64,000 nucleotides of DNA from an uncultured bacterium. Lineage in GTDB: Bacteria > Zhuqueibacterota > QNDG01 > DSAB01. How positions within the stretch are numbered: position 1 is the stretch's first letter; every line of letters starts with the position of its first letter. A model generated the notes under the pieces. It did not search any database. It saw only the letters and a list, made by a program, of their open reading frames with translations, and was not told where the DNA came from. Made by a program: the position numbers and the translations under genes. Below are positions 25,844 to 48,386 of this stretch, piece by piece. The stretch spans positions 828 to 64,827 of the forward strand of contig CAZYVD010000010.1 in NCBI GenBank assembly GCA_964651045.1. The letters are read 5' to 3'.

Positions 25844-25862
25844 CAGAACAACAGGAATAACG

Positions 25863-26741: not shown

Positions 26742-26773
26742 TCGCAGTCATGAAAAAATTTAGAGGGTGGAAC

Positions 26774-27712: not shown

Positions 27713-27729
27713 CCGGTAAGTTTTTGATT

Positions 27730-28782: not shown

Positions 28783-28793
28783 GAGCCAGGCCG

Positions 28794-29783: not shown

Positions 29784-29800
29784 GAGGACAGTAGAGAAGA

Positions 29801-30832: not shown

Positions 30833-30834
30833 AG

Positions 30835-31542
30835 ATGAAGAAGAGTGAAGGGAAATCTGCTCTATTATTTACATTCATTTTTATCCTACCTCTGGTCCTG
30901 AATGCTCAGTCTGTTCACAAAAAGGTAGCAGAGGCCAACAAACTCTTTCACGAACAGAAGTATGATCGGGCCATAAATAAATATCAGGATGCTCTGCTGG
31001 AAGATCCGACATCACCACTGATCCAGTTTAACATGGGAGACGTGCTATACAAAAAGAAAAGCTATGAGAAGGCACTAAAGGCATATCAGAAGGCACTGGA
31101 CTCAAGGGATCCAATGCTGCAATCCAAGGCCTATTATAATATCGGAAACACTCTCTATCGCGCGGGAAAGCTTCCAGAGAGCATAATTGCCTATCAGCAG
31201 GCTCTGAAACTTAATCCAGACGATCAGGATGCAAAATACAATCTTGAATTTGTTCGAAACAAGCTAAAACAAAACCCTAAAAAGCAACAACAGCAGCAGA
31301 ACCAGCAAAAACAACAAAGAGAGGAGAGTGATAAAAAAAACAGACCTGACAACAAGAGGCAGGATCAAAACAAAGAACAAAACGATCAGAAGCAAGAGCA
31401 AAGAAGTGCAGAACAAAAGAGGAAAGAGATGTCTAAGGAGGAGGCCGAAAACCTTCTGAATGCATTAAAAGAAAATCAGAAGAAGATGAAGAAAAAACTC
31501 GCCCGTGCAGGCGGAAAAATTAGGGTTTTAAAAGATTGGTAA
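30835..31542 (+). CDS. batC: TPR protein BatC
   Basis: TPRs (AYYNIGN, DAKYNLE), Gln-rich linker, C-terminal KDW. Confidence 0.85.
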   Translation: MKKSEGKSALLFTFIFILPLVLNAQSVHKKVAEANKLFHEQKYDRAINKYQDALLEDPTSPLIQFNMGDVLYKKKSYEKALKAYQKALDSRDPMLQSKAYYNIGNTLYRAGKLPESIIAYQQALKLNPDDQDAKYNLEFVRNKLKQNPKKQQQQQNQQKQQREESDKKNRPDNKRQDQNKEQNDQKQEQRSAEQKRKEMSKEEAENLLNALKENQKKMKKKLARAGGKIRVLKDW

Positions 31543-31553
31543 TAGAGAATAAG

Positions 31554-33416
31554 ATGAGAATAAGGGGAAAAATCTTTCTGTTTGCATTAACAGTAACGTC
31601 CATTTCTGCGGTCCAAGCGGCAGAGGATTTTCAAATAAAGGCATGGGTCGACAGGAGTGTGATCGGAATCAATGAACAGTTTATTCTAAATGTTGAGCTA
31701 TCGGGCAATGAAGCAGGCAGGGCTTCTACTCCACAGCTTCCAGACATGAATGAGTTTGCCGCTTTTCTTGGAAGTGGCTCATCACAAAATTTTCAGATAA
31801 TAAATGGTGTTACATCTATATCAAAAACAATAAATTACTATTTTCAGGCAACAAAGATAGGTAAGTTTACGATTGGCCCCATAAAAATAAAAGTTAAAAA
31901 TAAAACATATCAAACAGACCCAATCCCGATCGAGATTACTAAATCGTCATCAAAACCACGACAATCGGCTCAATCTCAGAGAAATGTTCAACAGGGACAG
32001 TCAGACATCTCCAATGAAGATATATTTATAAAGACCGTTGTTAATAAGAAAAAAGTTTATCAAAACGAGCCTGTAATAGTAACATATAAAATATATACCC
32101 GTGTAAACATGACTCCTGTGGGATTCACAAAACTTCCAGCTACTACTGGATTCTGGAAAGAAGAATTCCCAATGGGGCAGCAAATCCCCACTCACACAGA
32201 GATAGTTGACGGAAAACGCTATACTGTAGCAACAATTAAAAAAATGGCCCTCTTCCCGATGACTCCGGGGAAAAAGGTAATCGAGCCTCTCGTTCTTCAG
32301 TGCAGAATAAGGGTAAGGAAAAGACGGAGCATGTTCGACGATTTCTTTAATGACGATTTTTTCAGTGATCCATTTGGAAGAACAATCCAAAAAAATATAA
32401 GCTCTGAGCCTGTTATAATAAATGTTATCCCACTTCCAGAGAATGGAAAGCCGAAAGATTTCAAGGGCGTTGTGGGTGACTATAAAATATCTTCATTTGT
32501 AGATAAAGCAGATGTCAAGACAAATGAAGCAATAACATACACATTAACAATTTCAGGAACTGGTAACATACGCTCACTCCCAGAACCTGAAATATCCTTT
32601 TCACATGATCTTGAAGCCTACCCACCCGAGGTTTCAGAAAAGATTGAAAGAAAGGGAAATTCAATTTCTGGAACAAGAACATACGAATACGTTTTAATCC
32701 CCAGAGCTGCTGGCACCCAGAAGATTCAGCCTGTGACATTTACTTTCTTTGACCCTTCATCAAAAACATATAAAACACTTAGAACAGATCCAATAACAAT
32801 TCGCGTGCAAAAGGGAAGAGAGATATCAACACCAATCCCGCAAATAACATCAAAAGAAGAGGTGGAGCTGGTCGGAAAGGAGATCCGATTTATCATGACA
32901 GAACCCCCATCATTTCGGAAAATCGGTGAGGGAATCTTTAAATCTTATACTCTTATCATAATCTTTATTTCACCTCTAATCCTGCTATTTGCTGCAGTTT
33001 CTATAAGAAAACATCAGGATCGGCTGAGAGGAGACATTGCCTATGCCAGAAACAGGAGGGCAGGAAAATTTGCAAGGAAAAGACTCTCCATGGCTCGCTC
33101 TCTACTCAACGTTGAGAGTCAAAAAGAATTTTATGCAGAGGTAGGAAAGGCTCTTCTCGGCTATATCGGAGACAAACTCAATATAGAAGAGGCAGGAATA
33201 ATAAGGGATGAAGTAAAAAATATGTTGACTAAAAAGGGTGTAAGCGAAGAAGTACTGAATCGATTCTTTAAATGTCTCGATATTTGTGATATGAAGCGAT
33301 TCTCGCCCACAGGATCGACCATAGATGAGATGAAGAAATTTTTAAAAGAGGCAGAAGAGTGCCTTGTCATTATGGATCGGCATCTGGCAAAACAAAACAG
33401 GGATTTATCGTCATGA
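31554..33416 (+). CDS. batD: BatD family protein
   Basis: Repeated Ig-like modules; VYQNEPVIVTYKIY; P.DFKGVVG; YVLIPR..G; position after batC. Confidence 0.88.
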   Translation: MRIRGKIFLFALTVTSISAVQAAEDFQIKAWVDRSVIGINEQFILNVELSGNEAGRASTPQLPDMNEFAAFLGSGSSQNFQIINGVTSISKTINYYFQATKIGKFTIGPIKIKVKNKTYQTDPIPIEITKSSSKPRQSAQSQRNVQQGQSDISNEDIFIKTVVNKKKVYQNEPVIVTYKIYTRVNMTPVGFTKLPATTGFWKEEFPMGQQIPTHTEIVDGKRYTVATIKKMALFPMTPGKKVIEPLVLQCRIRVRKRRSMFDDFFNDDFFSDPFGRTIQKNISSEPVIINVIPLPENGKPKDFKGVVGDYKISSFVDKADVKTNEAITYTLTISGTGNIRSLPEPEISFSHDLEAYPPEVSEKIERKGNSISGTRTYEYVLIPRAAGTQKIQPVTFTFFDPSSKTYKTLRTDPITIRVQKGREISTPIPQITSKEEVELVGKEIRFIMTEPPSFRKIGEGIFKSYTLIIIFISPLILLFAAVSIRKHQDRLRGDIAYARNRRAGKFARKRLSMARSLLNVESQKEFYAEVGKALLGYIGDKLNIEEAGIIRDEVKNMLTKKGVSEEVLNRFFKCLDICDMKRFSPTGSTIDEMKKFLKEAEECLVIMDRHLAKQNRDLSS

Positions 33417-34177
33417 AAGGGAATATATATTTTTTAATAGCCATCTTTGCAATAACAGCATCCTACTGTTGCTTTGGCGATGAAAAGATCGATCTTTTTA
33501 ACAAGGGCAATGAATCATATAAGAATGGAAAATATAAGGAGTCGCTCGAAAGCTATTTAAAAATTCTTGATATGGGTTATGAAAGCGGAGAGCTATACTT
33601 CAATATAGGCAACTGCTACTATAAGCTAAACGACATTGGCAGATCAATCCTGTTTTATGAAAAGGCGAAAAAACTCATACCAGGCAATAAAGATTTGAAT
33701 GCAAACCTCCAACTTGCCAGATTAAAAGCAGTGGACAGGATTAAACCCCTGCCCGAATTCTTTTTGTTTAAACTAATAAGAACCATTATTTATCTCTTTC
33801 CTCTATCATTCATGATCTGGACAGCAGCAGGATTCTATACAGCAGCCTTCCTGTTTCTTATAATATGGACACTATCAAGAAAAAGATTTATTCGGCTCTT
33901 CAGCTTAAGAACCAGTATGGTGCTGGGTTCAATATTTCTGCTATTTTCTGTTGGGATAATTGGTCAGACTCTCACAGAGAAGAATAAAAAAGAGGCGGTA
34001 ATACTAGTGGACAAGGTGGATGTCAAGGGCTCACCCAGCGAGGATGGAATCGATGTCTTTTCCCTACATGAAGGAACAAAGGTTCGAATCGACCAGGAGT
34101 CTGACGAATGGATTGAGATTGTTCTTGCAGATGGAAAGGTTGGATGGATAAAGAAAACCATTGTCGGTATAATATGA
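33413..34177 (+). CDS. batE: BatE (TPR plus C-terminal SH3-like)
   Basis: YFNIGNCYYKL..IG.SIL.YEKA; C-terminal LHEGTKVRI...WIEI.LADGKVGWI. Confidence 0.9.
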   Translation: MKGNIYFLIAIFAITASYCCFGDEKIDLFNKGNESYKNGKYKESLESYLKILDMGYESGELYFNIGNCYYKLNDIGRSILFYEKAKKLIPGNKDLNANLQLARLKAVDRIKPLPEFFLFKLIRTIIYLFPLSFMIWTAAGFYTAAFLFLIIWTLSRKRFIRLFSLRTSMVLGSIFLLFSVGIIGQTLTEKNKKEAVILVDKVDVKGSPSEDGIDVFSLHEGTKVRIDQESDEWIEIVLADGKVGWIKKTIVGII

Positions 34178-34818: not shown

Positions 34819-35655
34819 CTACTCCTTTCCCCTCTCTGCAACACGACGTGACCTTTTTACTATAGCCGCAACAATCAAAGCGAGTCCCATAAAGCTAACA
34901 ACCGAAGGACCGCATGAAAAATCCAGTGAATAGGAAAATGCCAGTCCCACAATAGATGCAGAAATTCCCAGAAGCCAGGCTAGCAACATCCTTTTAAACC
35001 AGCTCGAAGTGAAAATTGCGGCAAATGTAGTCGGTATGATCAAGAATGAAAATATGGCTAAAACACCACCTATTCTGACTGAAATTGTTATAACCAATCC
35101 CATAGATACATAAAATAGAAAATCCCACCATGCTGCTCTGGAATCCTTCTCAATCGTCCTTCGATAATCTTTAGAAAGTGTTGTAAATTTATTTCTAAAA
35201 ATATAATGAAAAAGACCCACGATCAAATACACAGATGTACATATTAAAATATCATGCCATTTTGCCCATAATATGCTTCCTGTCAGCATATGCTCTAAAT
35301 GTACATCCCCTCCTGCAGCAAGAGCGAGTAGAAAAAGAGCAAGTGCTGCAGAGACGGCATACGATACACCGATAATTGCTTCCTGGGTTATCTGTGTAAC
35401 TCGCTTTATTATTTGTGAATAGAAAAATGCTGCCAGTATGGTAAATCCAAATGCTGAAAAATATGCAATTATGCTGGTATCCTCGATCCTCCACAGGGTA
35501 AAAACCAGTACAGTACCAACTGCTGCAACCTGGGCCAAAGCAATATCAATAAACACAATCTCCCTTTCAAGCACATGAATGCCTAAATAACCAAATATTC
35601 CTATCATGACCGCACATGCCACAAATGGAGGAAATAAAAATCCAATTACTTCCAT
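34819..35655 (-). CDS. Metal ABC transporter permease (ABC-3/ZnuB-like)
   Basis: GIHVLEREIVFIDIALAQVAA, EAIIGVSY, LTGSILW, FSFLIIP. Confidence 0.9.
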   Translation of the reverse strand: MEVIGFLFPPFVACAVMIGIFGYLGIHVLEREIVFIDIALAQVAAVGTVLVFTLWRIEDTSIIAYFSAFGFTILAAFFYSQIIKRVTQITQEAIIGVSYAVSAALALFLLALAAGGDVHLEHMLTGSILWAKWHDILICTSVYLIVGLFHYIFRNKFTTLSKDYRRTIEKDSRAAWWDFLFYVSMGLVITISVRIGGVLAIFSFLIIPTTFAAIFTSSWFKRMLLAWLLGISASIVGLAFSYSLDFSCGPSVVSFMGLALIVAAIVKRSRRVAERGKE

Positions 35656-35666
35656 TTTTCTTCCTT

Positions 35667-36494
35667 TCAGTTATTAGTACTGTATGCTTTTCTGTTCAAT
35701 CCGATCCGTATGATGAGAGCAAAAATAAAAAACAGGCCCAGAGAAAGTACCAGAGTGGGCCCATATGGCAGCCGGAAAAAATATGATGAAAACAGGCCTA
35801 CCATTGAAGCAACAAAACCAACAATCCAACCGATCCTCAGTGCATCGCCCCATCCCTTAGTAAACAGTGCTGCAATAGATGCCGGTATCATCAAGAATCC
35901 ATATGCTAAAAGCACTCCAGCAATAGGAACTATTAACACGGTTATAATACCAAGCGAGATGAAAAAGAAAAGGTCCCACAAATTCTCATTTGGTATTGTT
36001 CCTGGTTTTTCGGTTATTGTGATAAATTTATGACGATATTTATAGTGAAAGATCCCAAGAAGAATATAAACAAAAACTGTAACCACAACAAGCGGCCAGT
36101 TTACCCAGAGCATACATCCCGACTGAGTCTGGGTTACATATGAAGAGCCTCCACTAAATTTATCTGCTACCATGAAAGAGCTGACAAGGGCCAATCCATA
36201 TATTATGCCGATTACAGCCTCATGCGGAACTCGCTCTGATTTCGGCTTAACAAATGCAAGAAGTACCGAACCTATAAGCACTGCAACAAATGAGACAAAG
36301 TAGGAATAAGTCGATCCTCCTCCTATTCCCAATCCAATACCAATTATAATGCCCAGTGCAGCAAGCTGATCCAGTGCAAGATCACTGAATACAATACCTC
36401 TTCTGATTACATGCAGCCCCAGATATGTATGTACTGATGTTACTACAGCAAGCAGTACTATTTGAATCGATAAAAAATTAAACGTCTCCCACAT
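35667..36494 (-). CDS. Metal ABC transporter permease (ABC-3), paralog
   Basis: GLHVIRRGIVFSDLALDQLAA, EAVIGIIY, FLMIPA. Confidence 0.9.
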   Translation of the reverse strand: MWETFNFLSIQIVLLAVVTSVHTYLGLHVIRRGIVFSDLALDQLAALGIIIGIGLGIGGGSTYSYFVSFVAVLIGSVLLAFVKPKSERVPHEAVIGIIYGLALVSSFMVADKFSGGSSYVTQTQSGCMLWVNWPLVVVTVFVYILLGIFHYKYRHKFITITEKPGTIPNENLWDLFFFISLGIITVLIVPIAGVLLAYGFLMIPASIAALFTKGWGDALRIGWIVGFVASMVGLFSSYFFRLPYGPTLVLSLGLFFIFALIIRIGLNRKAYSTNN

Positions 36495-36519: not shown

Positions 36520-37554
36520 CTATTCTGAAACAGCCTCTACTATGTGATCGATCCAATAATCCATCAGTTTAAAATTATCTGAAACCTCTGGATTTCCGCC
36601 AACAGAAAGTGGAAGAAAAAGTGCCATAATTCCTGTCTTCTGGGCAATAGTGGTCGGTTTTCTCTTCTCAAAATAGTCTGCCACCAGCATGACATCAATC
36701 CCACTATCTTTAATGAGTTTAATCATCTTTTCAACATGCTTTGGTGTGGGAGGAATGCCTGGTTTTGGTTCAATGTATCCAAGAACCTTCATCCCAAAGT
36801 CATGAGCAAAATAGGCCCAGTTTTTATGATAGGCAATGACCTCCTTACCGTGCAGCGGCATGGCCTTTTTCATCCATCCACCGAGTCTTTTTACCAGCTT
36901 CTCGCCTCTAAATTCCCTTTCAATAAAATCAAAGAATGTGCCTGCCTTAACAAGATCCATCAGCTGCTGCCCGCCTATTAAATCAACGAGTTCATCGCCA
37001 AACATTGCCCTGTAAACACGGTCTACAAACCTTTTCTGTCTCTCTTCATAATATGATGCATGATCCGGATCTACCTTTTTCAATCCAATCAGGATATTCT
37101 CTGAAATAGGAATCCAGTTTCTGGGGCTGGTATGAATGTGAGGATTTCCATAAACATGAATATCTCCCTCTGTCCTGCTCAGAGCAGTCGTTGGTTTTTG
37201 CAAAAGCTCGATACCAGGATATACGGTAACATATCCAATCGCCCCATCCATGATCTTCTTGTTTCGCGCCTTGTCGAGCAGTGTTGTTGCCCAGAGCTCT
37301 AAATCCAGTCCTGTTGTTATAAAAAGATCTGCCTTTTTAAGCTTTATTGCAAGACTCGGCTTTGGAGGCACAAAATGGGGATCCTGATCGCCGTGTGACA
37401 GGTGATCAACAGTGACATAATCTCCGCCAATCTCCTTTACAATCGAAGCATAATCTGAAAATGTAGTAACAACATAGAGTTTGCCTTCCTGTGCAGATAT
37501 CATTGTAAATGTAAAAACTACTGCCAAAACGAAAATCAATTTACTCTTATTCAT
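36520..37554 (-). CDS. Metal ABC substrate-binding protein (ZnuA/TroA-like)
   Basis: GDQDPHFV, GLDLE, GDIHVYGNPHIH, YHKNW.YF, EPKPGIPPTPKH. Confidence 0.92.
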   Translation of the reverse strand: MNKSKLIFVLAVVFTFTMISAQEGKLYVVTTFSDYASIVKEIGGDYVTVDHLSHGDQDPHFVPPKPSLAIKLKKADLFITTGLDLELWATTLLDKARNKKIMDGAIGYVTVYPGIELLQKPTTALSRTEGDIHVYGNPHIHTSPRNWIPISENILIGLKKVDPDHASYYEERQKRFVDRVYRAMFGDELVDLIGGQQLMDLVKAGTFFDFIEREFRGEKLVKRLGGWMKKAMPLHGKEVIAYHKNWAYFAHDFGMKVLGYIEPKPGIPPTPKHVEKMIKLIKDSGIDVMLVADYFEKRKPTTIAQKTGIMALFLPLSVGGNPEVSDNFKLMDYWIDHIVEAVSE

Positions 37555-37606: not shown

Positions 37607-38926
37607 TCAATATGCTTCATGCTTATGGGGTCCCATTGACCAGACCGTCTGAATAAAGAATGTATGATCATTCTCTTCATAACTGCGGTAAGTATAGCTG
37701 TACTGGAACCTCATCATGACAAATTCTGACTGCCAGAAATCGACATAGGGAGTTATATCCCATTCATACTCCTTATTAACAACAGTTGGCAACTCCGAAT
37801 AACCCGCTCTGATACCTATCCAGAACCTGCGCCCGAGTTTATTGGAGATGTATGAATAGAAACCAAATCTATCGATTGCTCCATCCTTTCTGTTTCTGTG
37901 GCTGTAAAAAAATTCGTTTCTGAACTCTACAGTACGATAGTGAGCCCTGTCAACAGGAGCCCATTTATAGGTAATATCCAACCCCACAAGGGTCGTTCTG
38001 TACCCTGCCTTTTTATCGTTATATCCATTTGCACCTGAAAATCCAATCTCTATATAGGCATCTCTCGAAAGGTCATAATAGTTCTTCAGATGTGTAACAA
38101 ATATGACATTATCATTAGCATCATCAAAACTCACTCCATCTCCGCCTGTAACTATCTCTATATCGAGTTCGTTGACATGGGCCCACAGCCTGGGAAGCAA
38201 AAAGTTTGCTCCAACACCTATCCCTGCAAAATTATTCTTAGAAAAAAGATTGGTCAGCACCCTTGGACGGTCAACCTGAGGAAGACCGTGATCGTGCCAT
38301 CTGTTCAATATTCCAAACTGTGTATTAAACAGTCCAATCTTCAAGTTCATATTGGCCGGAAGATTGAGCCATTCCATATAGGCCTCTCCTATCATAAAAC
38401 TTAAGGGATATTCTCCTACTCCCGGTATGCCAAGAAAAAACTTACCTCTTGTAAATGGATCGAGTGGAGCAATGATATGAAATTCTGCCTCCCTCATATA
38501 AAACATATTCCGTCCATCTGTGAAATCGCCATCATTTACTATGACATCACTTTTCCCTGAGGATACACTTCCAAAAAAGTCACCAGTCATACTAATGTTG
38601 GGATTCAGCGCCTGAAGCTGTCTCTGCCCTCCTCTGAAGACTCTCGAAATCGTAGCTTCCTCTTTTTTCTTTGTCCTCGAGAGATCGCTTGCAGCATTGA
38701 GAAGTGCCTCCATTTCTGCCTTCTCCTTCTCTTCCTTTCTCGCCTTCTCTATGGCAGAGATTCTGCTGTCCAGATCCTTCAATTTTTTCAGATAGCAGTT
38801 CCTTAGCGAATCGAGCTCTGATAAGGCCTTTTTTATATCACTGTCCTTCTTTTTTTGAGCAGCCACGCCTGTACTCAAAGAGAGCATAAACATACACCCT
38901 GCAAATAGAGTAATCCATCTCATCAT
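37607..38926 (-). CDS. Outer-membrane beta-barrel (metal-uptake associated porin) with N-terminal coiled coil
   Basis: Signal, coiled coil, LNPNISMTGDF, FGILNRWHDHGLPQVDRP, alternating beta-strands, C-terminal MGPHKHEAY. Confidence 0.75.
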   Translation of the reverse strand: MMRWITLFAGCMFMLSLSTGVAAQKKKDSDIKKALSELDSLRNCYLKKLKDLDSRISAIEKARKEEKEKAEMEALLNAASDLSRTKKKEEATISRVFRGGQRQLQALNPNISMTGDFFGSVSSGKSDVIVNDGDFTDGRNMFYMREAEFHIIAPLDPFTRGKFFLGIPGVGEYPLSFMIGEAYMEWLNLPANMNLKIGLFNTQFGILNRWHDHGLPQVDRPRVLTNLFSKNNFAGIGVGANFLLPRLWAHVNELDIEIVTGGDGVSFDDANDNVIFVTHLKNYYDLSRDAYIEIGFSGANGYNDKKAGYRTTLVGLDITYKWAPVDRAHYRTVEFRNEFFYSHRNRKDGAIDRFGFYSYISNKLGRRFWIGIRAGYSELPTVVNKEYEWDITPYVDFWQSEFVMMRFQYSYTYRSYEENDHTFFIQTVWSMGPHKHEAY

Positions 38927-38991
38927 AAACTCCTTTCTTATGACTTAAAATAGAAGCTCAATAACAAGTATTATAATTTTAATTATAGTCT

Positions 38992-39294
38992 CTATGCAGG
39001 CGGGGCACGCGGATTGGGTCTTGATGATAAGACTTTTTGTGGTGTTAGAATGATTTCTTCTAAGGATATGTATTCAATGGTTATTGGCTGGACACATGTT
39101 GAACCCATGATGGGCATGATCTCCGGGATATCATTCTTTATTTGAATCTCCCAATGGCATGCCGGGCAATTATCATGGAATCTAAAATCCTGCTTGTGAT
39201 TGTGTAAAAGGGGGCTTAATAAATATATTGCTAAAAAATATGTCAGTACAATAGAGAATAATATTTTATATATAATTTTATAATTATGATTCAT
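38992..39294 (-). CDS. DUF2946-like leader protein with CxxC and C-terminal RAPP motif
   Basis: Hydrophobic N-terminus, HNH...HDNCPACH, ends PNPRAPPA-stop; 65 bp upstream of the porin gene. Confidence 0.75.
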   Translation of the reverse strand: MNHNYKIIYKILFSIVLTYFLAIYLLSPLLHNHKQDFRFHDNCPACHWEIQIKNDIPEIMPIMGSTCVQPITIEYISLEEIILTPQKVLSSRPNPRAPPA

Positions 39295-39325
39295 AATATA
39301 AACACTAATATTTTAAAGTAAAACT

Positions 39326-39354
39326 AAGATAAATAATTTTATTCTCGAATGCAA
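39326..39354 (-). promoter_or_regulatory. Putative sigma70-type promoter of the metal uptake operon
   Basis: On the minus strand TTGCAT, 17-bp spacer, TATCTT. Confidence 0.55.
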
Positions 39355-39471
39355 GCATTTTCCGCCGAACCATATTAATTAAAAATAAAATATCGATCGA
39401 TAGCTACATATATAATTTGAAAATACAAACACTTAGATTCTGTCTATTCATGGTAAGGGTAACATTTAAAT

Positions 39472-39503
39472 AAAAAAGCCCTACTCTATTAAGAGTAAGG
39501 CTT
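39472..39503 (-). terminator. Intrinsic terminator after the sigma54-type regulator
   Basis: Minus strand AAGCCTTACTCT-taat-AGAGTAGGGCTT followed by TTTT. Confidence 0.75.
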
Positions 39504-39527
39504 CATCTGTTTAAACTTCTGCTACTT

Positions 39528-40454
39528 TTAAAACTCTTTCTTTGAGAAACCATACTTTTTCATCTTGTAGCGCAGAGCGGCCTCTGAAATCTTAAGAGCC
39601 CTTGCCGATTTTGTCTGATTTCCTGCATATCTGCGGAGCGACTTGCGAATCATATACTTCTCGACTTCACCCACAGAACTCGGCAGATCCATGCCATCCA
39701 AGAATTCAAAGGGATGCCTCCTCACCTCAAATGGTAAATACTCTATCGAAAGCTTATCCTCTGGTGACAGCAGTATCAAATTCTCTATGGCATTCTTCAA
39801 TTCTGTTACATTACCTGGCCACTCATACTCCATAATCGACTCGAATAAAAGTGTTGGAACTGCGGGCATCTCCTCCTGCGAATCTTTAAAATGTTCGTTC
39901 ATAAAGTGGTTAAAAAGAATAGGAATGTCCTGCCTCCTGTTCCTCAGTGGTGGGAGATAGATTTTGAGTTGACTCAGAAGAGCCAGAAAATCCTGCCGAA
40001 ATGTCTCCTTTTTCAGTTTCTTCTCATCCGTGGCAGAAGCTATCAAGCGAATATCTATCTTTACATACTCATCCTCTGAAGGCCTTTTGAATTTACCCTC
40101 TTTAAAAATATTGAAAAATCTTTTCTGATACTCTGGATCAAGATCTTCTACGTTTTCAAGAAATAGTATGCCTCTGTTCGCCTTCTCAATAATACCGAGT
40201 TTGCGTTCAAAACCCTTCGGGCCTTCTACTCTCTTTCCAAATATCTCATCATCCGTAATCGTGTCGCCAACCGCAGGACAATTCAAAACCACAAATGGCT
40301 TCCTGACCCTTGTACTCCGATGGCGTATCTCAAGAGCCGTGTGTTTTCTTCCTGTCCCGACCTCCCCAATTATCAACACATTAACATCCGACTTGCCGGC
40401 TTCTCGTATTATTCTTCTTGCCGTCAATATTTCAGGACTCTGTCCTAATAACAT
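39528..40454 (-). CDS. Sigma54-interaction-domain/Fis-HTH regulator, degenerate, with no sensor domain
   Basis: Start ATG 40454 with AGGAGG. bEBP layout (LPPLRNRRQDIP, YEWPGNVTEL, GNQTKSARALKIS) but altered Walker A, Walker B and GAFTGA positions. Confidence 0.85.
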   Translation of the reverse strand: MLLGQSPEILTARRIIREAGKSDVNVLIIGEVGTGRKHTALEIRHRSTRVRKPFVVLNCPAVGDTITDDEIFGKRVEGPKGFERKLGIIEKANRGILFLENVEDLDPEYQKRFFNIFKEGKFKRPSEDEYVKIDIRLIASATDEKKLKKETFRQDFLALLSQLKIYLPPLRNRRQDIPILFNHFMNEHFKDSQEEMPAVPTLLFESIMEYEWPGNVTELKNAIENLILLSPEDKLSIEYLPFEVRRHPFEFLDGMDLPSSVGEVEKYMIRKSLRRYAGNQTKSARALKISEAALRYKMKKYGFSKKEF

Positions 40455-40700
40455 AATACACCTCCTATTGCTATTCTCATCTTTAATATCTCTTTCACCT
40501 CTAATTCTCTTAAAATAAAATATAATATTTTTTTCGAATAAATCAAGATAAATAATAAATATTTTTATTTTATTCACAATTAACTTGTGGGAGAAATCGA
40601 ATTCAGCAGAGTTAAAAGGTATTCTTTAGCTGAATTAACAATTTTAGCTGCTGTGAGAATAATTTGGTAGGCCTATTAGCAATAATTCAATCAATGTGGA

Positions 40701-43700
40701 TTAAATAGATAACCTCTTGAATTTTATAGAAATCTTCTCAAAAGTAACATATAGAACCGGAATTACTGTAAGCACCATTACCGTAGATGCGATTAAACCT
40801 CCAATTGTTGCAAGTGCAAGTGCATACCAGATGTCACCAGATTCGCTTCCTAAAATCACAAGTGGAAGCAGGCCACCAATGGTAGTAAACGTTGTCATCA
40901 GGATCGGCCTCATTCTGTTTGAGGTTCCATTAATGACAGCCTCTTTAATACTTAAACCTTCCCTTCTCAATCTGTTTATATGATCAATTAAAATGATCGA
41001 GTCGTTAACAACAATTCCTCCAAGCAGTATAACACCAATATATGCAGAACGATCAAAAGATGTACCGGTCAGATAGAATATTAAAAAAACACCTGAGAGT
41101 GAAAACGGTACAGTCAGAAGAATGAGAAAAGGATGAAGAATCGACTCAAAAAGACCGGCAGTTACCAGAAATACGAGCAGAAGAGAAATACCGAGTATAA
41201 AAAAGATTTCATTCTTCTCTTTTTTGCTCATTCTATAACTTCTGCCATTATCCACACTGTACCCTGGCGGAACATGTGTTGTATTTATTATGCTCTCAAT
41301 GAGACGATTACATAGCTTCTGAGGACCTCTAAACTCAAATCCAACATATCGCATGTACTGCTGATTCTCTCTCAAAATCTCCTCCATTGTCTTTCGTTTT
41401 GTTATGAGAGCAACCTCACCTAAACGTACCCCCTCTCCCCTCTTTGTTGGTATGAGCAGATTCTTTAAATCCATCATTGAAAAATCTTTATAAGTTTTAA
41501 ACTTAATTGTACACCCTATCTCATCACCGCCCATTCTGACCCGCTGGGCACCAAGATTTTCCCTCAAAAAAGCACTCACATTGTATAGAACCTCCAATAT
41601 TGTGATATCGTATTTCATCAACTTTTCTCTATCAATACTAAGAACAGTCTCATATGAGTTTCCATATGAATAGACATAAGCCATATCTTCATTCACATTT
41701 TTCACTCTTACATATTTCCTGAGCCTTTTTCCTATATCGTGTGCTATCTTTTTTATTCTGTCATAGTTGTATCCAAGAATCTTTATACTATTTCCCATTA
41801 CCCAATAGGAAGATCCTATAGAGAATGGCTCACCAAAACCATATATTGAAACATCTATGCCCGACATCTGTGCTGCAACTCCTATCAACTCCTCTTTTAG
41901 AATATATGGAAAACTTGTGGATAGAACCTCCTCAGGGAATTTTATTCTCATGCTTGCACTTTCATCATAAACATTTGTTGAAATCTTTTCCACAAAATTT
42001 TTTTTGAGAGCTATGTTTTCAAATTTTCTAATAATCTTATCGGTGCGCTCCAGTTCTGCACCTTTTGGCAGTCTTATGCCTACATACAGGACCTCTCTTC
42101 TTCCCCAGCCCGACCATATCCTTCCCTTCGTAACATACCTGTCAAAAATATAGTATGAAAATCCAAGCAGGATGAGGAGAACAGACAATACAACTCCCCT
42201 GTGATCAACCATCCTGCTCAATGTTCGCTTAAACCATCCCAGAGGTTTAAAAACCCGAATCTTTTCGACAGCAAGTTCTTCTTCTGAAAAAAACCTTGCT
42301 GTGAGTGAAGGGGTCAGTGAAAATGCAACAACTATTGAAGAAAGAAGAGAAAAACCAACGGCCATTGCAAATGGAAGATAGTAGATGCGAAGCTCGCCTG
42401 TCATGTACAAAAAAGGCAAAAAGGCTACAACTGTTGTAAGAGTAGATGCCATTATTGGAAGCACAACCTCTTTTGTACCATGTATAGCAGAATCGATCAG
42501 CCTCTCGCCACCTCCACATCTTCTTATTATATTCTCCACAACAACAATGGCATTGTCAACAAGCATACCAAACCCAAGAGTGAGCCCAGCTAATGTGAGA
42601 AGATTGAGAGTGATTTTAAAGATTAAAAACAGATTGAGACTCATGAGAACCGAGAAAAAGATTGTGGAAATTATGATTATCGGTGAACGATATGTGTGTA
42701 AAAATATCATAAGAACAAGAAAAATAACCACAACGGAAAACAGGGATTTCTGAGCAAGTGAGGAGAGATTGTCCCGAATCTCTCTACTCTGATCATCATC
42801 AACAATCATTGTAAGGTTGGCGGGCAGCCTATCTTTAATTACATCAAGCTTTTCCATTATTCTATCTGCACAACTTACAATGTTTGTTCCGATCTCCCTG
42901 TCGATATTGATAACCACTGCAGGATTACCATTTATTCTGGAAAGGCTCCTTGCACGCCCAAAAGTATCAAAAACCTGGGCAACATCTTTGATTCTGACAA
43001 CTCCACCATCCTTTGTGGTCTTGATTATAGCATTACTGATTTCATCAGCATCTTTTATTGGAGTATCTATAAATATGGACTGACGAGTTCCTCCCTGATC
43101 TATTGCACCAATATTCTCTTTCATCCCAAGCTCATTGAGCACAGCAGCAATACTGTAGAGTGAGAGTCCATATGAATCTAACCTGTGTTTATCCACAAGA
43201 ATCTCTATTTCACGATCCTGTCCTCCAATCACTGTAACATTTGCCACACCCTTTATTCCTAAAAGATATGGTCTGATTCTATCGAGTGCTATACTCCGAA
43301 GATCATTTATCGTGTAAGGCCCTGTCAGGCGAATTGAAAAGAAACGTCCTGTTCTGAATTTCCTCGGCTCATATCTGCTGATAGAAGGAGGCGACACGCC
43401 GTGGGGAAGCTCTTCTCGTACCATTGATAACTTTTCACTGAGCTCCATCTTTGCAAATTCCATATCGGTTCCACGACTGAACTGAAGTGTTACCTGAGAA
43501 TTTCCCTCACTTGAACTCGATGTTACTTTCTGAACACCCCTGATGGTATTTGCCACTGCCTCCAGTGGTGCTGTGACAAATGCCTCCATTACTTCTGGAG
43601 ATGTATAGGGCCATGAAACAGTGATTGTCAACTGGGGAAACTCTACATTTGGAGTAATCTCAAGAGGCAGATGAGTTGCAGAAAAAAAGCCTGTGAAGAG

Positions 43701-43763
43701 AATGACCAGAAAAATCATTGCAATTGCAATTGGACGTCTTATCGATGTTTCTATTAGATCCAT
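40701..43763 (-). CDS. RND efflux permease (AcrB/AcrD/AcrF family)
   Basis: P.VEFPQLTITV, GMLVDNAIVVVENI, RMRPILMTT, about 12 TM segments. Confidence 0.95.
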   Translation of the reverse strand: MDLIETSIRRPIAIAMIFLVILFTGFFSATHLPLEITPNVEFPQLTITVSWPYTSPEVMEAFVTAPLEAVANTIRGVQKVTSSSSEGNSQVTLQFSRGTDMEFAKMELSEKLSMVREELPHGVSPPSISRYEPRKFRTGRFFSIRLTGPYTINDLRSIALDRIRPYLLGIKGVANVTVIGGQDREIEILVDKHRLDSYGLSLYSIAAVLNELGMKENIGAIDQGGTRQSIFIDTPIKDADEISNAIIKTTKDGGVVRIKDVAQVFDTFGRARSLSRINGNPAVVINIDREIGTNIVSCADRIMEKLDVIKDRLPANLTMIVDDDQSREIRDNLSSLAQKSLFSVVVIFLVLMIFLHTYRSPIIIISTIFFSVLMSLNLFLIFKITLNLLTLAGLTLGFGMLVDNAIVVVENIIRRCGGGERLIDSAIHGTKEVVLPIMASTLTTVVAFLPFLYMTGELRIYYLPFAMAVGFSLLSSIVVAFSLTPSLTARFFSEEELAVEKIRVFKPLGWFKRTLSRMVDHRGVVLSVLLILLGFSYYIFDRYVTKGRIWSGWGRREVLYVGIRLPKGAELERTDKIIRKFENIALKKNFVEKISTNVYDESASMRIKFPEEVLSTSFPYILKEELIGVAAQMSGIDVSIYGFGEPFSIGSSYWVMGNSIKILGYNYDRIKKIAHDIGKRLRKYVRVKNVNEDMAYVYSYGNSYETVLSIDREKLMKYDITILEVLYNVSAFLRENLGAQRVRMGGDEIGCTIKFKTYKDFSMMDLKNLLIPTKRGEGVRLGEVALITKRKTMEEILRENQQYMRYVGFEFRGPQKLCNRLIESIINTTHVPPGYSVDNGRSYRMSKKEKNEIFFILGISLLLVFLVTAGLFESILHPFLILLTVPFSLSGVFLIFYLTGTSFDRSAYIGVILLGGIVVNDSIILIDHINRLRREGLSIKEAVINGTSNRMRPILMTTFTTIGGLLPLVILGSESGDIWYALALATIGGLIASTVMVLTVIPVLYVTFEKISIKFKRLSI

Positions 43764-43830
43764 TTTCGATATATAATAATCTTAAAAAGTTAACTTCCAG
43801 CAATCCTCAGTATTGTAGCAATTAAACAAT

Positions 43831-46800
43831 CTAAACAGCCTCCTCCCTGCTCTGTCTCCTCTCAGAAACCAGGCTGTAGAGTACTGGAATCATAATAAGG
43901 GTTAGCACCGTAGATGTAAAGAGCCCACCTATAATTGCCAGTGCCAGTGGACGTTGCAGTTCTGCACCTGCACCCAGTCCACTGGCCATTGGTGCAAGCC
44001 CAAGTATGGTTGTTACTGATGTCATCACAATTGGCCTGAACCTCTTTCTTCCAGCATCCATTATTGCCCTCCGTACAGAACTGCCCCTCCTTCTTTCCTG
44101 ATTAATAAAATCTATCTTGACAATAGCATCATTGACTGCAATACCCACAAGCACAACAACACCTATCATAGAGATTACATTCAGAGACTGACCTGTCAAC
44201 AGCAAAAGCCATATTGTTCCCACAGCAGCCATCGGTATTGAGAATATTATGATAAGGGGATGAATTAAAGACTCAAACTGGGCAGCCATAATCATATAAA
44301 CAAGTACAATGGCCAGAATTCCTGCCCACATTAGACTTTTATACGATTGTGCCATCTCCTGCTTGGCACCACCTATTGAAATGTATGTGTCTGTACTCAG
44401 GGGAATGTCATCCATTTTATTCTCGAGCTTTTTTATCACCTGGGCGAGTGACTTTCCAGAAACATTAGCATAAAGACTTATTACCCTCGTCTGATCCTCA
44501 CGATGTATCTCTACAGCACCCCTTGACTTTGATATTGTTGCCACCTCTCTCAGTGGAATACCACTGTGTCCTGTAGGAATCGTTGTATTCATCAATCTCT
44601 CAATATCCATTCTGTTGGAAAATCGAGGTTTGACTCTGATATCTATCTTCTGCTCCATCTCCTTGAATTGAGAAGCAAGATCGCCTGTTAAATCATTCTT
44701 TATGAACCTTGCTATATTTCTAACCGAGAGTCCATACATCCCTGCTCTCTCTCTATCGATAACTATCCGATATTCCGGCCTGCCCACTTCGAAGTCGGAT
44801 TTTAAATCGGTTATCCCCGGCACTTCTCTACACTTCTCTTTTATCTTTTCTATAATCCCAAGAGCTTCCTCAAGCTTCTCACCGTAGACCTGAATAACTA
44901 TATCTGCTTCTGTGGTACCGAGTATCTGGCTTAGCACAGTCTGACCAGTACCAAATGTAACTTCTGCAGCACTGTTTGCAAATCTTTTTCTAAGATTATC
45001 CATTATACTTTTTGTCTTAACACCCCTCTTAACACGTACACGTATCTCGGCCTTATTGAGACCCGTATTTGCCATCCCGGTTCCTATCTGCTGTCGAATT
45101 AATCCCACACTGGAAAAAACATCCTGCACTCCATCTGTTTGCATTATTTCCCTTTCCATCTGCAAGACCAATTCATTTACTGCCGATAGAGATGTACCCG
45201 GCTCCATCCGCACCTCTATCCTGAACTCTCTCTGGTCGACTCTTGGCATAAGCTCTCTCGGAAGAATAAATCCTGCACCTGCGGTTATGAAGAGTATTAG
45301 TGCCATGATGAGCAGAGCAGCAACCCTGTTATCAAGTGCTGTATTTAAAACCTTCTCATACTTCTGCATGAGGAAAGATAGTATCCTGTTGAACTGTTTG
45401 AATATTGGATTTGTAAATCTATAAAACATAGCTCCGCATCTTTTAAGAATCAGAGATATAAGACTCATAACAATCCGATAAATATATCTGATAAGTTTAA
45501 ATATCGCTCCTAATACGATCCTGAAAGGAAACAGTATCCATCTTATCGGCCGCCTGTTTATGAAATCGATTTTCCCACCCCCAATCTCCTCTACATGGTC
45601 CACTTTACCATCACGCGAAAATCTTGATGCAAGCACTGGAAGAAGGGTTAATGAAACTACTAGAGAAGAAAGTAGTGCAAATGTTACTGTTATTGCCTGG
45701 TCCTTGAAAAGCTGTCCGGCAATTCCACGAACATACAATACCGGGAAAAATACTGCGATTGTCGTAAAGGTCGAAGCAGTTACTGCCATTGCTACCTCTT
45801 TTGTCCCATTCACTGCAGCTCTAACCATACCTGCACCACCTTCTCTATGGCGAAAGATGTTTTCGAGTACAACTATAGAACAATCCACAAGCATGCCCAC
45901 ACCAAGTGCAAGCCCACCAAGCGACATGAGATTCAGGCTCACACCAGTAAAATATAATAAAATGAATGTTCCGATTATCGATATTGGAATCGCAACAGAT
46001 ATACTAAGAGGATTTCTTATATCATTCATGAAAAAGAACAGTATAAAAAAGGCAAGAATACCTCCTAACACAATCGCCTGCAGAACGTTAGAAACTGCCT
46101 TTGATATGAAATCTGCCTGATCATAGGCTATGACTATTGGTATTCTTGGATACTCCATCCTCAGTTGTGATAGAACCTGCTTTACTCTTTTCGATACTCT
46201 TACGGTATTTGCGCCGGCCTCTTTGGTCAGCAGTATTCCTATGCTCTCTTCTCCATTGTAGTGGGTTATGTTCTGCCTCTCTTTGAAACCCTGTTTTACA
46301 ACTGCCACATCTCTGAGATGTATTATTGAACCATCCCTTTCTCTTTTTATTACTACAGATTCCATCTCTTTTACATTCTGGAAAGAACCGATTGTACGAA
46401 GAGAGTAGCGATATCTGCCCTTTTTGATGGTGCCCCCAGGCATATCAACATTTGCATTATCAATTGCAGCCGAGATATGATCTATAGTCAAACCGAGGGC
46501 CTCGATCTTCTCTTTGTCTACATCTACCTGGACCTCTCTCTCCATTCCGCCAACCACATCGGCAAGTGCAACTCCCCTTATCTGTTCCAATCTTCTCTTG
46601 AAAACATTCCTGCTTATCTCTTTTAATGAAACAAGATCCCTTCCCGAAACAGAAAGAGCAATGATCGGCTGCTGTGAAGGATCGAGATGAATGAGTGTTG
46701 GCCTTCCAGCATCTTCAGGAAGACTCCTGCTAATTGCATCGAGCTTCTCTCTTACGTGAAGAGAGGCAAAATCCATGTTCTGTCCCCAGTTGAATTCCAG

Positions 46801-47076
46801 GATTATCTGGGAAAGCCCCTCTTTTGAGAACGATCTTATTTTACGAATCCCTGCTACTGTTGATACACTCTGTTCAATTGGTTTTGTTATCAGTCGCTCG
46901 ACCTCCTCTGGTACTGCATTTGGAAATACAGTATACACAGTTAACTTTGGATAAGAAAGATCCGGCAGCAAATCCACAGACAACCTGCCAAGTGACACAA
47001 AACCCAAAAGAAGTATGCCCGTATAGAACATTATTACTGCAACGGGACGTCTTGTTACGAGTTCTGCAATATGCAT
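43831..47076 (-). CDS. RND efflux permease, paralog
   Basis: DLLPDLSYP, GMLVDCSIVVLENI, AQFESLIHP, RFRPIVMTS. Confidence 0.95.
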   Translation of the reverse strand: MHIAELVTRRPVAVIMFYTGILLLGFVSLGRLSVDLLPDLSYPKLTVYTVFPNAVPEEVERLITKPIEQSVSTVAGIRKIRSFSKEGLSQIILEFNWGQNMDFASLHVREKLDAISRSLPEDAGRPTLIHLDPSQQPIIALSVSGRDLVSLKEISRNVFKRRLEQIRGVALADVVGGMEREVQVDVDKEKIEALGLTIDHISAAIDNANVDMPGGTIKKGRYRYSLRTIGSFQNVKEMESVVIKRERDGSIIHLRDVAVVKQGFKERQNITHYNGEESIGILLTKEAGANTVRVSKRVKQVLSQLRMEYPRIPIVIAYDQADFISKAVSNVLQAIVLGGILAFFILFFFMNDIRNPLSISVAIPISIIGTFILLYFTGVSLNLMSLGGLALGVGMLVDCSIVVLENIFRHREGGAGMVRAAVNGTKEVAMAVTASTFTTIAVFFPVLYVRGIAGQLFKDQAITVTFALLSSLVVSLTLLPVLASRFSRDGKVDHVEEIGGGKIDFINRRPIRWILFPFRIVLGAIFKLIRYIYRIVMSLISLILKRCGAMFYRFTNPIFKQFNRILSFLMQKYEKVLNTALDNRVAALLIMALILFITAGAGFILPRELMPRVDQREFRIEVRMEPGTSLSAVNELVLQMEREIMQTDGVQDVFSSVGLIRQQIGTGMANTGLNKAEIRVRVKRGVKTKSIMDNLRKRFANSAAEVTFGTGQTVLSQILGTTEADIVIQVYGEKLEEALGIIEKIKEKCREVPGITDLKSDFEVGRPEYRIVIDRERAGMYGLSVRNIARFIKNDLTGDLASQFKEMEQKIDIRVKPRFSNRMDIERLMNTTIPTGHSGIPLREVATISKSRGAVEIHREDQTRVISLYANVSGKSLAQVIKKLENKMDDIPLSTDTYISIGGAKQEMAQSYKSLMWAGILAIVLVYMIMAAQFESLIHPLIIIFSIPMAAVGTIWLLLLTGQSLNVISMIGVVVLVGIAVNDAIVKIDFINQERRRGSSVRRAIMDAGRKRFRPIVMTSVTTILGLAPMASGLGAGAELQRPLALAIIGGLFTSTVLTLIMIPVLYSLVSERRQSREEAV

Positions 47077-47114
47077 ATTTTACTAATCCAGAATTTTATT
47101 AAAATTTTAACAAA

Positions 47115-48386
47115 TCACTTTCTTACTTTAACTGGTGCATCGTGAGCAAGCGTGTAGTTTCCTTTTGTGACTACAAGTTCTCCCGGTTTGAGATTGAACT
47201 TTGAACTCAATACTTCTTTATACATCTCATTTTCAAGACCTGTAGTCACATAACTCCACTTTGCCTTTCCATCTCTCACAATAAATACTACTTCACGCTG
47301 ATCCCTCAGAACAACCGCCTCCTTCGGCACAAGGAACCTCTCCTTATATATTTTTGCTACTATCTTTACATCTGCAGACATTCCAGACTTTATCCTGTAT
47401 CCTGGATTATCGATACAAATTGTTACACGACACATTCTCTTTTCCTGATCAATAATAGGATTTATCGAGATCACTTCTCCTCTGAATGTATCACCAGGAA
47501 AGGCGAGAAACTCTGCAGTTGCCTCCCGGCCGACCATGATCGATCCAATCTCACTCTCAAGAACATTTGCCTCTATTCTTATTTTTGAAAGATCTACAAG
47601 CTTAAAACACTCCCTACCACTGTTTACATACTGTCCCAAAAATACCTGCTGGTCACCAAGAATTCCTGAGAATGGGGCTCTGATTTCTGTGTTCAAAAGA
47701 TTGAATCTGGCACGCCTGAGAGATATTACCGCATCATCCAGACCGCTCCTAATTGAAAATCTATCTATTCGACTCTGGGCAACAAAATCTTTTGTCACAT
47801 CGTACCATATTTTGAATTTCGAAAACTCTTTCTCAGATATTTTTCCAGCCTCCTTCAAAGCCATAGCATTCTCATAACTCTGCCTCATCTTCTCTAAATA
47901 TACTGGATCTGATCTGTTTGAGTCAGTATCAGAGGGCATGAGAGAGAGGGTCCCTCCTGAGAACAACTTTTCTACAAAAGATGCCTGAGCCTTCTTCAGG
48001 TTGTTTTCGGCCTCTTCCAGATCGAGACGATATCTGCTGTCATCGATCTTAAAAATCATCTCCCCTTCTTTCACCTCAGAGCCCTCTTGCACCGGAAGCT
48101 CGACTATCCTTCCACTTACTCGTGGAATTATGGTCACCTCACTCCAGGGTCTTGCAACACCAGAGGCAGATACTCTGATTATTAGATCTCCAACAAATGC
48201 CGGCCTCGCCTCAACAATCACAGGATTTATAAACTTTGATTCATCTGTCTTGAATTCTACTGTCTTATCTGCCCTGTTCCTTGCCTCCTTCCTCTTTTGA
48301 ATAAAATACAATGACAGCAAAACAATAATAATTGTAGGTATTATCCATCTCAGTGAAGATTTTAAGATTTTAATAAATTTTTTCAT
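47115..48386 (-). CDS. RND periplasmic adaptor (membrane fusion protein)
   Basis: N-terminal TM, VSGRIVELPVQEGSEVKEG, TEIRAPFSG, IKSGMSADV, VPKEAV. Confidence 0.93.
   Translation of the reverse strand: MKKFIKILKSSLRWIIPTIIIVLLSLYFIQKRKEARNRADKTVEFKTDESKFINPVIVEARPAFVGDLIIRVSASGVARPWSEVTIIPRVSGRIVELPVQEGSEVKEGEMIFKIDDSRYRLDLEEAENNLKKAQASFVEKLFSGGTLSLMPSDTDSNRSDPVYLEKMRQSYENAMALKEAGKISEKEFSKFKIWYDVTKDFVAQSRIDRFSIRSGLDDAVISLRRARFNLLNTEIRAPFSGILGDQQVFLGQYVNSGRECFKLVDLSKIRIEANVLESEIGSIMVGREATAEFLAFPGDTFRGEVISINPIIDQEKRMCRVTICIDNPGYRIKSGMSADVKIVAKIYKERFLVPKEAVVLRDQREVVFIVRDGKAKWSYVTTGLENEMYKEVLSSKFNLKPGELVVTKGNYTLAHDAPVKVRK

Follow-up and report, generated by a model that had tools for sequence, protein, structure and literature searches.

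The DNA studied here, called the window, is a stretch of 64,000 nucleotides (nt) from contig CAZYVD010000010.1 of an uncultured bacterium. Its minus strand carries an open reading frame (ORF) of 100 amino acids (aa), the leader (39294..38992, ATG at 39294-39292, TAG at 38994-38992), followed by the genes of a porin-like outer-membrane protein, a ZnuA-family substrate-binding protein and two ABC-3 permeases. An earlier, sequence-only reading had seen in this ORF a likely metal-sensing ribosome-arrest leader controlling the uptake operon, by the logic of the DUF2946 protein CruR of Bordetella. The features it had pointed out, i.e. the ORF, its hydrophobic segment, a His/Cys motif, RAPPA immediately before the stop and a 65-nt gap before the porin gene, were all confirmed, and the background it quoted on CruR, DUF2946 and RAPP agrees with the published accounts (PMC9426467 and PMC12992588). 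Its central proposal, a CruR-like leader that governs a different cargo, gains support from the analysis below, each prediction of it that could be computed having been borne out at the level of sequence.

The leader ORF and its family

The leader protein (MNHNYKIIYKILFSIVLTYFLAIYLLSPLLHNHKQDFRFHDNCPACHWEIQIKNDIPEIMPIMGSTCVQPITIEYISLEEIILTPQKVLSSRPNPRAPPA) is composed of one N-terminal transmembrane (TM) helix, then HNHKQDFRFHDNCPACH, and RAPPA-stop at its end. Its motifs are laid out as H31-N-H33-KQDFRF-H40-DN-C43-PA-C46-H47, a 49-residue stretch, and R96-A-P-P-A-stop. The sole hydrophobic segment in a Kyte-Doolittle scan covers approximately residues 4-30 (39205..39285), which AlphaFold2 (AF2) models as a helix with a predicted local distance difference test (pLDDT) score of 86-98; with K6 and K10 on its N side, this signal-anchor or TM helix agrees with the export signal (a signal peptide or an N-in/C-out TM helix) carried by >95% of DUF2946 proteins. 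The putative metal-binding motif H31-N-H33-x6-H40-D-N-C43-P-A-C46-H47 occupies 39154..39204, with CPAC at residues 43-46 (39168-39157). It is followed by a spacer of 49 residues (47-95; 39010..39156) which is modelled as disordered (pLDDT 58-71), as is everything in the AF2 model except the anchor and a short helical segment at CPAC. The putative arrest motif RAPP (CGT GCC CCG CCT, 38998..39009) corresponds to residues 96-99 of 100, with a single Ala before the stop, and is the only R[AG]PP found across the six frames of the window. The leader is a called gene on a contig of the Joint Genome Institute (JGI), where it bears no Pfam domain.

An exhaustive HMMER search of 1.84 billion representatives returned about 50 clusters of relatives of approximately 100 aa that align with the leader from end to end (E≤1e-3); a word-indexed search with the leader gave no match beyond the leader itself. 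In the alignment of 51 relatives H31 and both Cys of the CPAC motif (C43 and C46) are invariant, while at least 90% of the sequences have H33, H40, A45, W48, R96, P98 and P99. Thus the extra His residues, which the sequence-only reading had flagged as possibly changing the metal sensed, are conserved. Outside the anchor, the His/Cys motif and RAPP the sequence is essentially free, and the mean column identity of the alignment is 27%. The length of the spacer is nevertheless fixed: 49 residues separate CxxC from the Arg in 43 of 49 members, with no conservation of the spacer sequence. The C-terminal motif is RAPP in 41 members, RGPP in seven and RSPP in one, and 1-8 residues (mode 3) lie between the motif and the stop. 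A chance ORF is ruled out by this homologous family and by the uniqueness of RAPP in the window, since the motifs, their spacing and the position ahead of the porin gene are kept in dozens of distant genomes.

The variation of the C-terminal motif can be compared with published experiments. Saturation mutagenesis of ApcA, ApdA and ApdP showed that the Arg and the Pro residues are essential, that Ala to Gly is fully permissive and that Ala to Ser is partly so (PMC12992588). The variants seen in the leader family at the Ala position (G, rarely S) are exactly those that retain arrest experimentally (PMC12992588). RAPP is strongly avoided in proteomes, yet enriched at the C-termini of small exported proteins encoded upstream of regulated genes (PMC12992588), and the leader has the corresponding characters: an R-A/G-P-P core, placed at the C-terminus of a small membrane protein, upstream of an operon. 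By analogy with the CruR and ApdA/ApdP toeprints, from which the position is borrowed (PMC12992588), the ribosome would be expected to stall with its P site at Pro98 (39003-39001) and its A site at Pro99 (39000-38998).

The assignment to DUF2946 fared less well when tested by hidden Markov model (HMM). In a Pfam scan PF11162 (DUF2946) had no hit on the leader protein at E≤1, and among the 51 close relatives it hit four, all at E≥0.02 (best E=0.02). More distant relatives, found by profile search and aligned with the leader family by hhalign at a probability of 99.5%, gave weak PF11162 hits in 8 of 21 cases (best E=0.0012); their CxxC-to-RAPP spacing of 43-47 residues is DUF2946-like. No hit of the profile search, made on 5.8 billion proteins, carried a precomputed PF11162 domain, and tblastn of a distant relative against plasmids gave no match. 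The link to DUF2946 is thus given by weak per-sequence Pfam hits. Membership was rejected as demonstrable, given the Pfam null and the HMMER and profile searches that returned no annotated DUF2946 protein. The leader shares with DUF2946/CruR proteins the CxxC, the C-terminal RAPP and the first place in the operon ahead of a long gap; its spacer is 49 residues vs a published DUF2946 spacing of 45 (±1-2), and the copper-related neighbours of CruR-type genes, i.e. a TonB-dependent transporter (TBDT, such as OprC), PepSY_TM, PCuAC, ScoC, YcnI or CopC, are not found beside it. Three of the 21 distant relatives also match PF10795 (DUF2607) at E≥0.0015, and one group of them (P0244) bears the NCBI name DUF2607 with a weak PF10795 match; the leader protein has no PF10795 hit. 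Judged by its sequence the leader is therefore a distinct subfamily of a CruR/CutF-like superfamily, with a spacer longer by four residues and added His ligands; it follows the logic of CruR, but it cannot be shown to belong to DUF2946.

The uptake operon and its counterparts in other genomes

The ATG of the porin gene is at 38926, exactly 65 nt from the leader stop (gap 38927-38991). The encoded 439-aa protein (37607..38926, minus strand) is modelled by AF2 (pLDDT 83) as a porin-like beta-barrel with an N-terminal coiled coil; the best PDB match of this model in Foldseek is OprP (2o4v), and the top matches are OprP/OprO and general porins. It has no Pfam hit, nor have its 598 homologues a Pfam domain. 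Its conserved His clusters (NRWHDHGLPQ and GPHKHEAY) belong to motifs that are invariant in the family, N-R-W-H-D-H-G-L-P-Q and, towards the C-terminus, W-S-M-G-P-H-K-H-E-A-Y; the N-terminal coiled coil of the family is about 60 residues long. This family may be a metal-selective channel. The next gene (36520..37554) encodes a ZnuA-family substrate-binding protein of cluster A-I (PF01297, 2e-46) with His at the third ligand position; its best NCBIfam match is AztC, under the cutoff of that model. Two ABC-3 permease genes (PF00950; 36494-35667 and 35655-34819, together 34819..36494) complete the series. No ABC ATPase gene was found in the window, nor within ±6 kb in 43 of the 46 long related loci (L003-L081 set). 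Either the ATPase is encoded elsewhere or the permeases function without one.

Scanning one genome per GTDB species yielded 324 cassette loci, of which 80 were read. The order porin-ZnuA-permease-permease is present in all 80 wherever the contig permits, and a separate contig look-up returned the identical cassette. A leader lies upstream in 75 of the 78 loci with enough upstream sequence, from KSB1, Latescibacterota, Bacteroidota and others (the loci without one are L004, L014 and L069). These 75 leaders are ORFs of 95-135 aa that end in [R/H]-[A/G/S]-P-P plus a few residues. The gap between leader and porin gene, measured in 74 loci, is 47-587 nt (median approximately 80) and the two genes never overlap; in the other loci the porin gene was taken to start at the first ATG that follows the preceding stop in its frame, and this ATG may lie slightly ahead of the leader stop. 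None of the loci has Sec, YidC or Dsb genes downstream; the porin-cassette loci all have the porin and the ZnuA/ABC-3 importer.

The leaders are of three types. In KSB1-like genomes, including that of the window, they read HNH...CPAC...RAPP, and in some Latescibacterota they carry CPLC and a second hydrophobic stretch. The Bacteroidota loci (L017-L080) have a leader with two TM helices, three invariant HxH pairs (six His) and no Cys. Its C-terminus is NYHAPP, LRAPP, YRAPP or RGPP, i.e. His and Arg interchange at the first position of the motif; 54±1 residues separate the last HxH from the motif, and about 30 lie between the end of the second TM helix and the motif. That the His-type leaders are homologous to the CxxC-type ones was rejected, as hhalign gave a probability of 12% and aligned only the C-terminal motif. 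The predicted C-terminus is periplasmic in single-TM leaders and cytoplasmic in two-TM leaders. A plan shared without shared sequence, with C-termini in different compartments, points to a role at the ribosome.

The distant relatives are also found ahead of metal importers. One of them heads a TBDT-x-ZnuA-ABC-ABC-3 series, i.e. a complete ZnuABC, then a cation-efflux gene (L082, 6001-12309); another is followed by a 489-aa protein without Pfam domain and then by ZnuA and ABC-3, a FUR-family gene lying close by (L084, 6001-9698); a third heads ZnuA-ABC-3 (L085, 6001-9416).

In the window, upstream of the leader, the minus strand (39528-48386) carries the genes of a membrane-fusion protein, of two pumps of about 1000 aa that by eye are of the resistance-nodulation-division (RND) type, and of a sigma-54 activator; the last has neither a receiver nor a sensor domain in Pfam. 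On the plus strand, 24839-34177 holds, also by eye, aerotolerance-like genes of the MoxR/DUF58/BatA-BatE type, with vWA-like and TPR-like proteins.

Transcription and RNA structure around the leader

An intrinsic-terminator-like hairpin was predicted on the minus strand at the end of the upstream sigma-54 activator gene (39475..39504). As it closes the preceding gene, the leader heads its own transcription unit. No sigma-54 consensus with three or fewer mismatches was found in 39018-40752, and a sigma-54 promoter through which the neighbouring activator would act on the leader was rejected; the GG-N9-GC at 39363-39351 is one base short of the canonical spacing. A 10-bp palindrome, ATCGATCGAT, lies at 39396-39405, about 100 nt upstream of the leader start, without a recognisable -35. 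A shared operator upstream of the leaders was rejected as well, since an 8-mer census yielded AT-rich words only.

The sequence-only reading had named a separate promoter between leader and porin as a finding that would tell against it. On the minus strand no sigma-70-like promoter was called within 38927-38991, and to this extent the expectation stood; the gap nevertheless contains two perfect but bare TATAAT hexamers, which leave this part of the claim less secure. They accompany an AT palindrome, TATAATTAAAATTATA, at 38971-38987, without a recognisable -35.

The intergenic region (38927..38991) carries the AAGGAG Shine-Dalgarno (SD) sequence of the porin gene at 38935-38930. No terminator-like site was found in it on the minus strand, and the only Rfam signal in 38700-39700 is noise at the upstream terminator. 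Over its final 100 nt (38992..39091) the leader ORF is C-rich and G-poor (31 C, 12 G); this tract, a candidate rut-like site for Rho loading, ranks in the top 0.2% of 1630 coding windows in the window. In all of 73 loci this end of the leader is richer in C and poorer in G than the porin gene. The skew of C over G appears at all three codon positions, the third included (p=5e-10), but the related loci are not phylogenetically independent, so that this p-value and those given below for the pairing peak and the cognate duplexes overstate the significance.

Masking of the porin start by the leader end was assessed on folds from -120 to +60 nt of each locus. The footprint of the stalled ribosome is the top pairing partner of the porin start region in 30 of 62 loci, and the profile of pairing rises to a sharp maximum at 0 to +17 nt relative to the first Pro codon (p=1e-4). 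Duplexes of the leader end with the porin start region are more stable when both come from one locus than when they come from different loci (-10.1 vs -7.3 kcal/mol, p=1.4e-5), while a control window 60 nt upstream shows no cognate preference (p=0.17). An RNAalifold consensus on 18 Bacteroidales gaps had no pairs, the alignment being too divergent. In the window itself, minimum free energy and ensemble folds predict a local hairpin (38919..38968) sequestering the porin SD and ATG, and an outer helix (38900..38998) between the Pro99-Ala-stop region (38998-38990) and porin codons 6-9 (38910-38900). Only this outer helix lies under a ribosome stalled at RAPP. The fold of the region, with z=-1.2 relative to shuffles, is not significant.

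Interpretation and comparison with known systems

The sequence features, the conservation of the family, the fixed spacer and the synteny are shown; from them, and from the published arrest peptides, we take the leader to be probably a nascent-chain sensor of metal that acts in cis, in the manner of CruR and CutF. The N-terminal helix would target the nascent chain to the membrane, and translation would arrest with Pro98 of RAPP in the P site and Pro99 in the A site. The H-x-H-x6-H-x2-C-x2-C module would then be fixed some 50 residues from the peptidyl-transferase centre, just outside the exit tunnel, at or through the translocon. When metal is scarce the stall would persist and expression of the porin, ZnuA and the permeases would be maintained; when metal is bound the module would fold or be held, the resulting pull would release the arrest, termination would follow two codons later and expression would fall. 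We infer this direction of control from the cargo: an uptake operon should be on when its metal is scarce, which fits the logic of CruR and not that of CutF. Two read-outs can be envisaged. The stalled ribosome could cover the C-rich, G-poor tract and thereby block Rho, or it could open the helix that masks the porin start region.

Zinc is our best guess for the metal sensed, held with lower confidence than the mechanism. It is favoured by the ZnuA/ABC-3 cargo together with a His3Cys2 or His6 sensor, by the third ligand of the substrate-binding protein, which in alignments with PDB structures is His where Mn-type proteins have Glu, and by the relatives, with their TBDT-ZnuABC operon and the link of DUF2607 to Zur. 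But the ZnuA family also carries manganese and iron, and CxxC is a classic Cu(I) site. The assignment is thus circumstantial, and Mn, Fe, Ni, Co and Cu remain candidates. The reading that joins all these elements is more tentative, and we would sooner doubt than assert it as a whole: the leader would be the first non-copper, probably zinc-responsive nascent-chain sensor (His3Cys2, a 49-residue ruler and RAPP), gating a porin-ZnuA-permease importer across KSB1, Latescibacterota and related phyla, with an unrelated two-TM His6 leader, often ending in Y-H-A-P-P, taking its place in Bacteroidota. If this is true, His can stand in on Bacteroidota ribosomes for the Arg of RAPP that is supposed to be irreplaceable, and leaders of such design arose or were swapped repeatedly.

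Besides the ambiguity of the metal, several observations speak against a sensor that works as outlined. No obvious SD sequence was seen for the leader ORF, and PF11162 does not detect it. In Bacteroidota leaders His often stands in place of the Arg that is irreplaceable in ApcA, ApdA and ApdP; either their ribosomes are different, or the C-terminal motif that the leaders share serves some other purpose. An internal promoter within 38927-38991, at the TATAAT hexamers, is possible. Amino-acid composition or anti-SD-like Pro codons could account for part of the C-rich tract, and the 65-nt gap is itself not C-rich (5 C, 9 G). In the window the leader end is not notably complementary to the porin start (-7.2 kcal/mol, 25th of 74), the local hairpin of the start region is beyond the reach of a ribosome at RAPP, and holding the leader end open raises the unpaired probability of the start region only from 0.08 to 0.25. 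Forcing the footprint open across the loci raises the predicted accessibility only from 0.38 to 0.43. Unmasking of the start region is thus not supported in the window itself, whether by the folds, by accessibility or by the cognate-duplex test. Since the masking-helix signal is absent there, the Rho-type route, which was proposed for CruR, with the Rho-loading site masked by the stalled ribosome (PMC9426467), is somewhat more likely in the window than unmasking.

The leader could also be a stable functional protein: a membrane-anchored periplasmic metal-binding protein or chaperone that passes metal from the porin to ZnuA, or a sensor acting in trans, with PP as a protein-interaction element. 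CutF, CopL and CzcI were at first proposed to act in this way, and the same continues to be assumed of ZrgD. A conserved His/Cys motif beside a membrane anchor and the strict co-occurrence with transporter genes would be expected of such a protein. The Bacteroidota version, with two TM helices, six invariant His and often HAPP, suits it too, since replacement of the Arg abolished arrest in the peptides tested (PMC12992588), and some CutF-like proteins are entirely without a proline motif (PMC9973294). But half of the protein is a spacer of free sequence and fixed length, modelled as disordered, as is typical of rulers but would be strange in a folded partner. The leaders retain the C-terminal motif although their C-termini are predicted in different compartments, and the substitutions tolerated at the Ala position are the ones that preserve arrest. 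The gene, moreover, is always first, followed by a non-overlapping gap and by RNA complementarity specific to the locus. We therefore consider a stable functional protein unlikely.

An arrest peptide need not respond to metal. It could monitor insertion or secretion by Sec/YidC, or the redox state of the envelope through a disulfide in CxxC, and be released by translocon pulling as SecM, MifM, ApdA and ApdP are. An N-terminal anchor together with RAPP is indeed the architecture of a monitoring substrate, and in the two-TM Bacteroidota class the end of TM2, about 30 residues before [R/H]APP, is where force profiles have established the strongest pull of TM insertion; relief of the CutF stall by disulfide formation has also been proposed (bioRxiv 2025.02.05.636593). 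This monitoring role nevertheless seems improbable to us because the downstream genes are never Sec, YidC or Dsb and the conserved residues are metal ligands, His3Cys2 or His6. Finally, control could be by transcription only, through a Zur/Fur-type repressor or the neighbouring sigma-54 activator, with the ORF as a passenger or an RNA element as the part that matters. Uptake operons of this kind are usually controlled by Zur or MntR, a FUR-family gene lies near one distant relative (L084), and in the window a sigma-54 activator gene is directly upstream. However, the searches for a sigma-54 consensus (39018-40752), for an operator-like word shared upstream of the leaders and for an Rfam match (38700-39700) were negative, and it is the protein that is conserved, down to the exact spacing of its motifs. 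Transcriptional control alone is hence highly improbable, but the leader may well be accompanied by a transcriptional layer.

To our knowledge the only metal-sensing arrest leaders studied so far are CruR and CutF, both proteobacterial and both responding to copper. The leader family shows the same design, under strong selection, before zinc-type (ZnuA/ABC-3) importers in phyla rich in uncultured members. The cassette defined here comprises five genes in at least 324 species-level genomes, with a new His-cluster porin family and no ATPase gene. The census of Fujiwara et al. 2025 showed that small RAPP/RGPP ORFs precede many metal-related genes, and reported copper-related upstream ORFs as lacking in Bacteroidota (PMC12992588). 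It grouped upstream ORFs by the annotation of the next gene (PMC12992588), so that a leader before an unannotated porin would count under "hypothetical protein"; surveys based on annotation miss this leader for the same reason. The terms "Zinc" and "ZnuA" do not occur in the main text of the census and HAPP is not considered there (PMC12992588), while "ZnuA", "metal ABC transporter" and "substrate-binding" were not found in the part of its supplements that was accessible. ZnuA, ABC-3 and zinc are absent from the papers on CutF and CruR, porin neighbours are absent from those on CutF, and no work combining ZnuA with arrest peptides was found in the searchable literature. Thus the branch of leaders tied to ZnuA/ABC-3 is widespread and undescribed in that literature, while its principle is known from CruR (2022) and CutF (2023, 2025).

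CruR (Bp2923 of Bordetella pertussis) offers the closest parallel in design. Both are small exported proteins encoded first in an operon, with CxxC, a sequence-free spacer of fixed length, RAPP and a near-terminal stop; both are separated by a non-overlapping gap from an outer-membrane uptake gene, and in both cases metal should switch the operon off (PMC9426467). In CruR the spacer is 45±2 residues, and adding five impairs copper control (PMC9426467); arrest at its RAPP has been shown in vitro (PMC12992588). The leader differs by its 49-residue spacer, by three conserved His before CxxC, and by an anchor that looks uncleaved, in place of a signal peptide. The cargo of CruR is a TonB-dependent transporter with PepSY_TM, that of the leader a porin with ZnuA and two ABC-3 permeases. 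CruR has a 162-nt gap in a locus of 72% G+C, whereas the leader has a 65-nt AU-rich gap in an AT-rich host of the FCB group. The metal of CruR is copper, which is probably not the case for the leader.

CutF of Rhodobacter capsulatus, whose CutF-like proteins form 29 clusters in a sequence similarity network, is also a nascent exported sensor in which a periplasm-exposed Cys motif modulates a C-terminal proline stall. That stall melts a stem-loop masking the ribosome-binding site of the next gene (PMC9973294; bioRxiv 2025.02.05.636593), and the same kind of masking helix, the SecM/CutF arrangement, is predicted in about half of the leader loci. The CutF-like proteins also include clusters with His only, next to HupE/UreJ. 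CutF itself has CxxxC and a PPP relieved by EF-P, and its logic is the opposite, since copper prolongs the stall and turns on a detoxifying oxidase.

ApdA, ApdP, ApcA and the SecM-like RAGP peptides resemble the leader in being small secretory or membrane proteins, encoded upstream of a regulated gene, that carry R-A/G-P-P close to the C-terminus. They monitor Sec/YidC, whereas here a porin and a metal importer lie downstream. ZrgD (DUF2607, PF10795), of the Zur-regulated zrg operon of Vibrio, is strongly induced by zinc limitation together with the zinc importer (PMC9817125); its family is weakly matched by distant relatives of the leader (the P0244 group), though not by the leader itself. 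Compared in this way, the natural variants, i.e. a spacer of 49 vs 45 residues, His3Cys2 vs CxxC, one vs two TM helices and RAPP vs HAPP, bear on how the binding of a ligand is converted into the release of an arrest.

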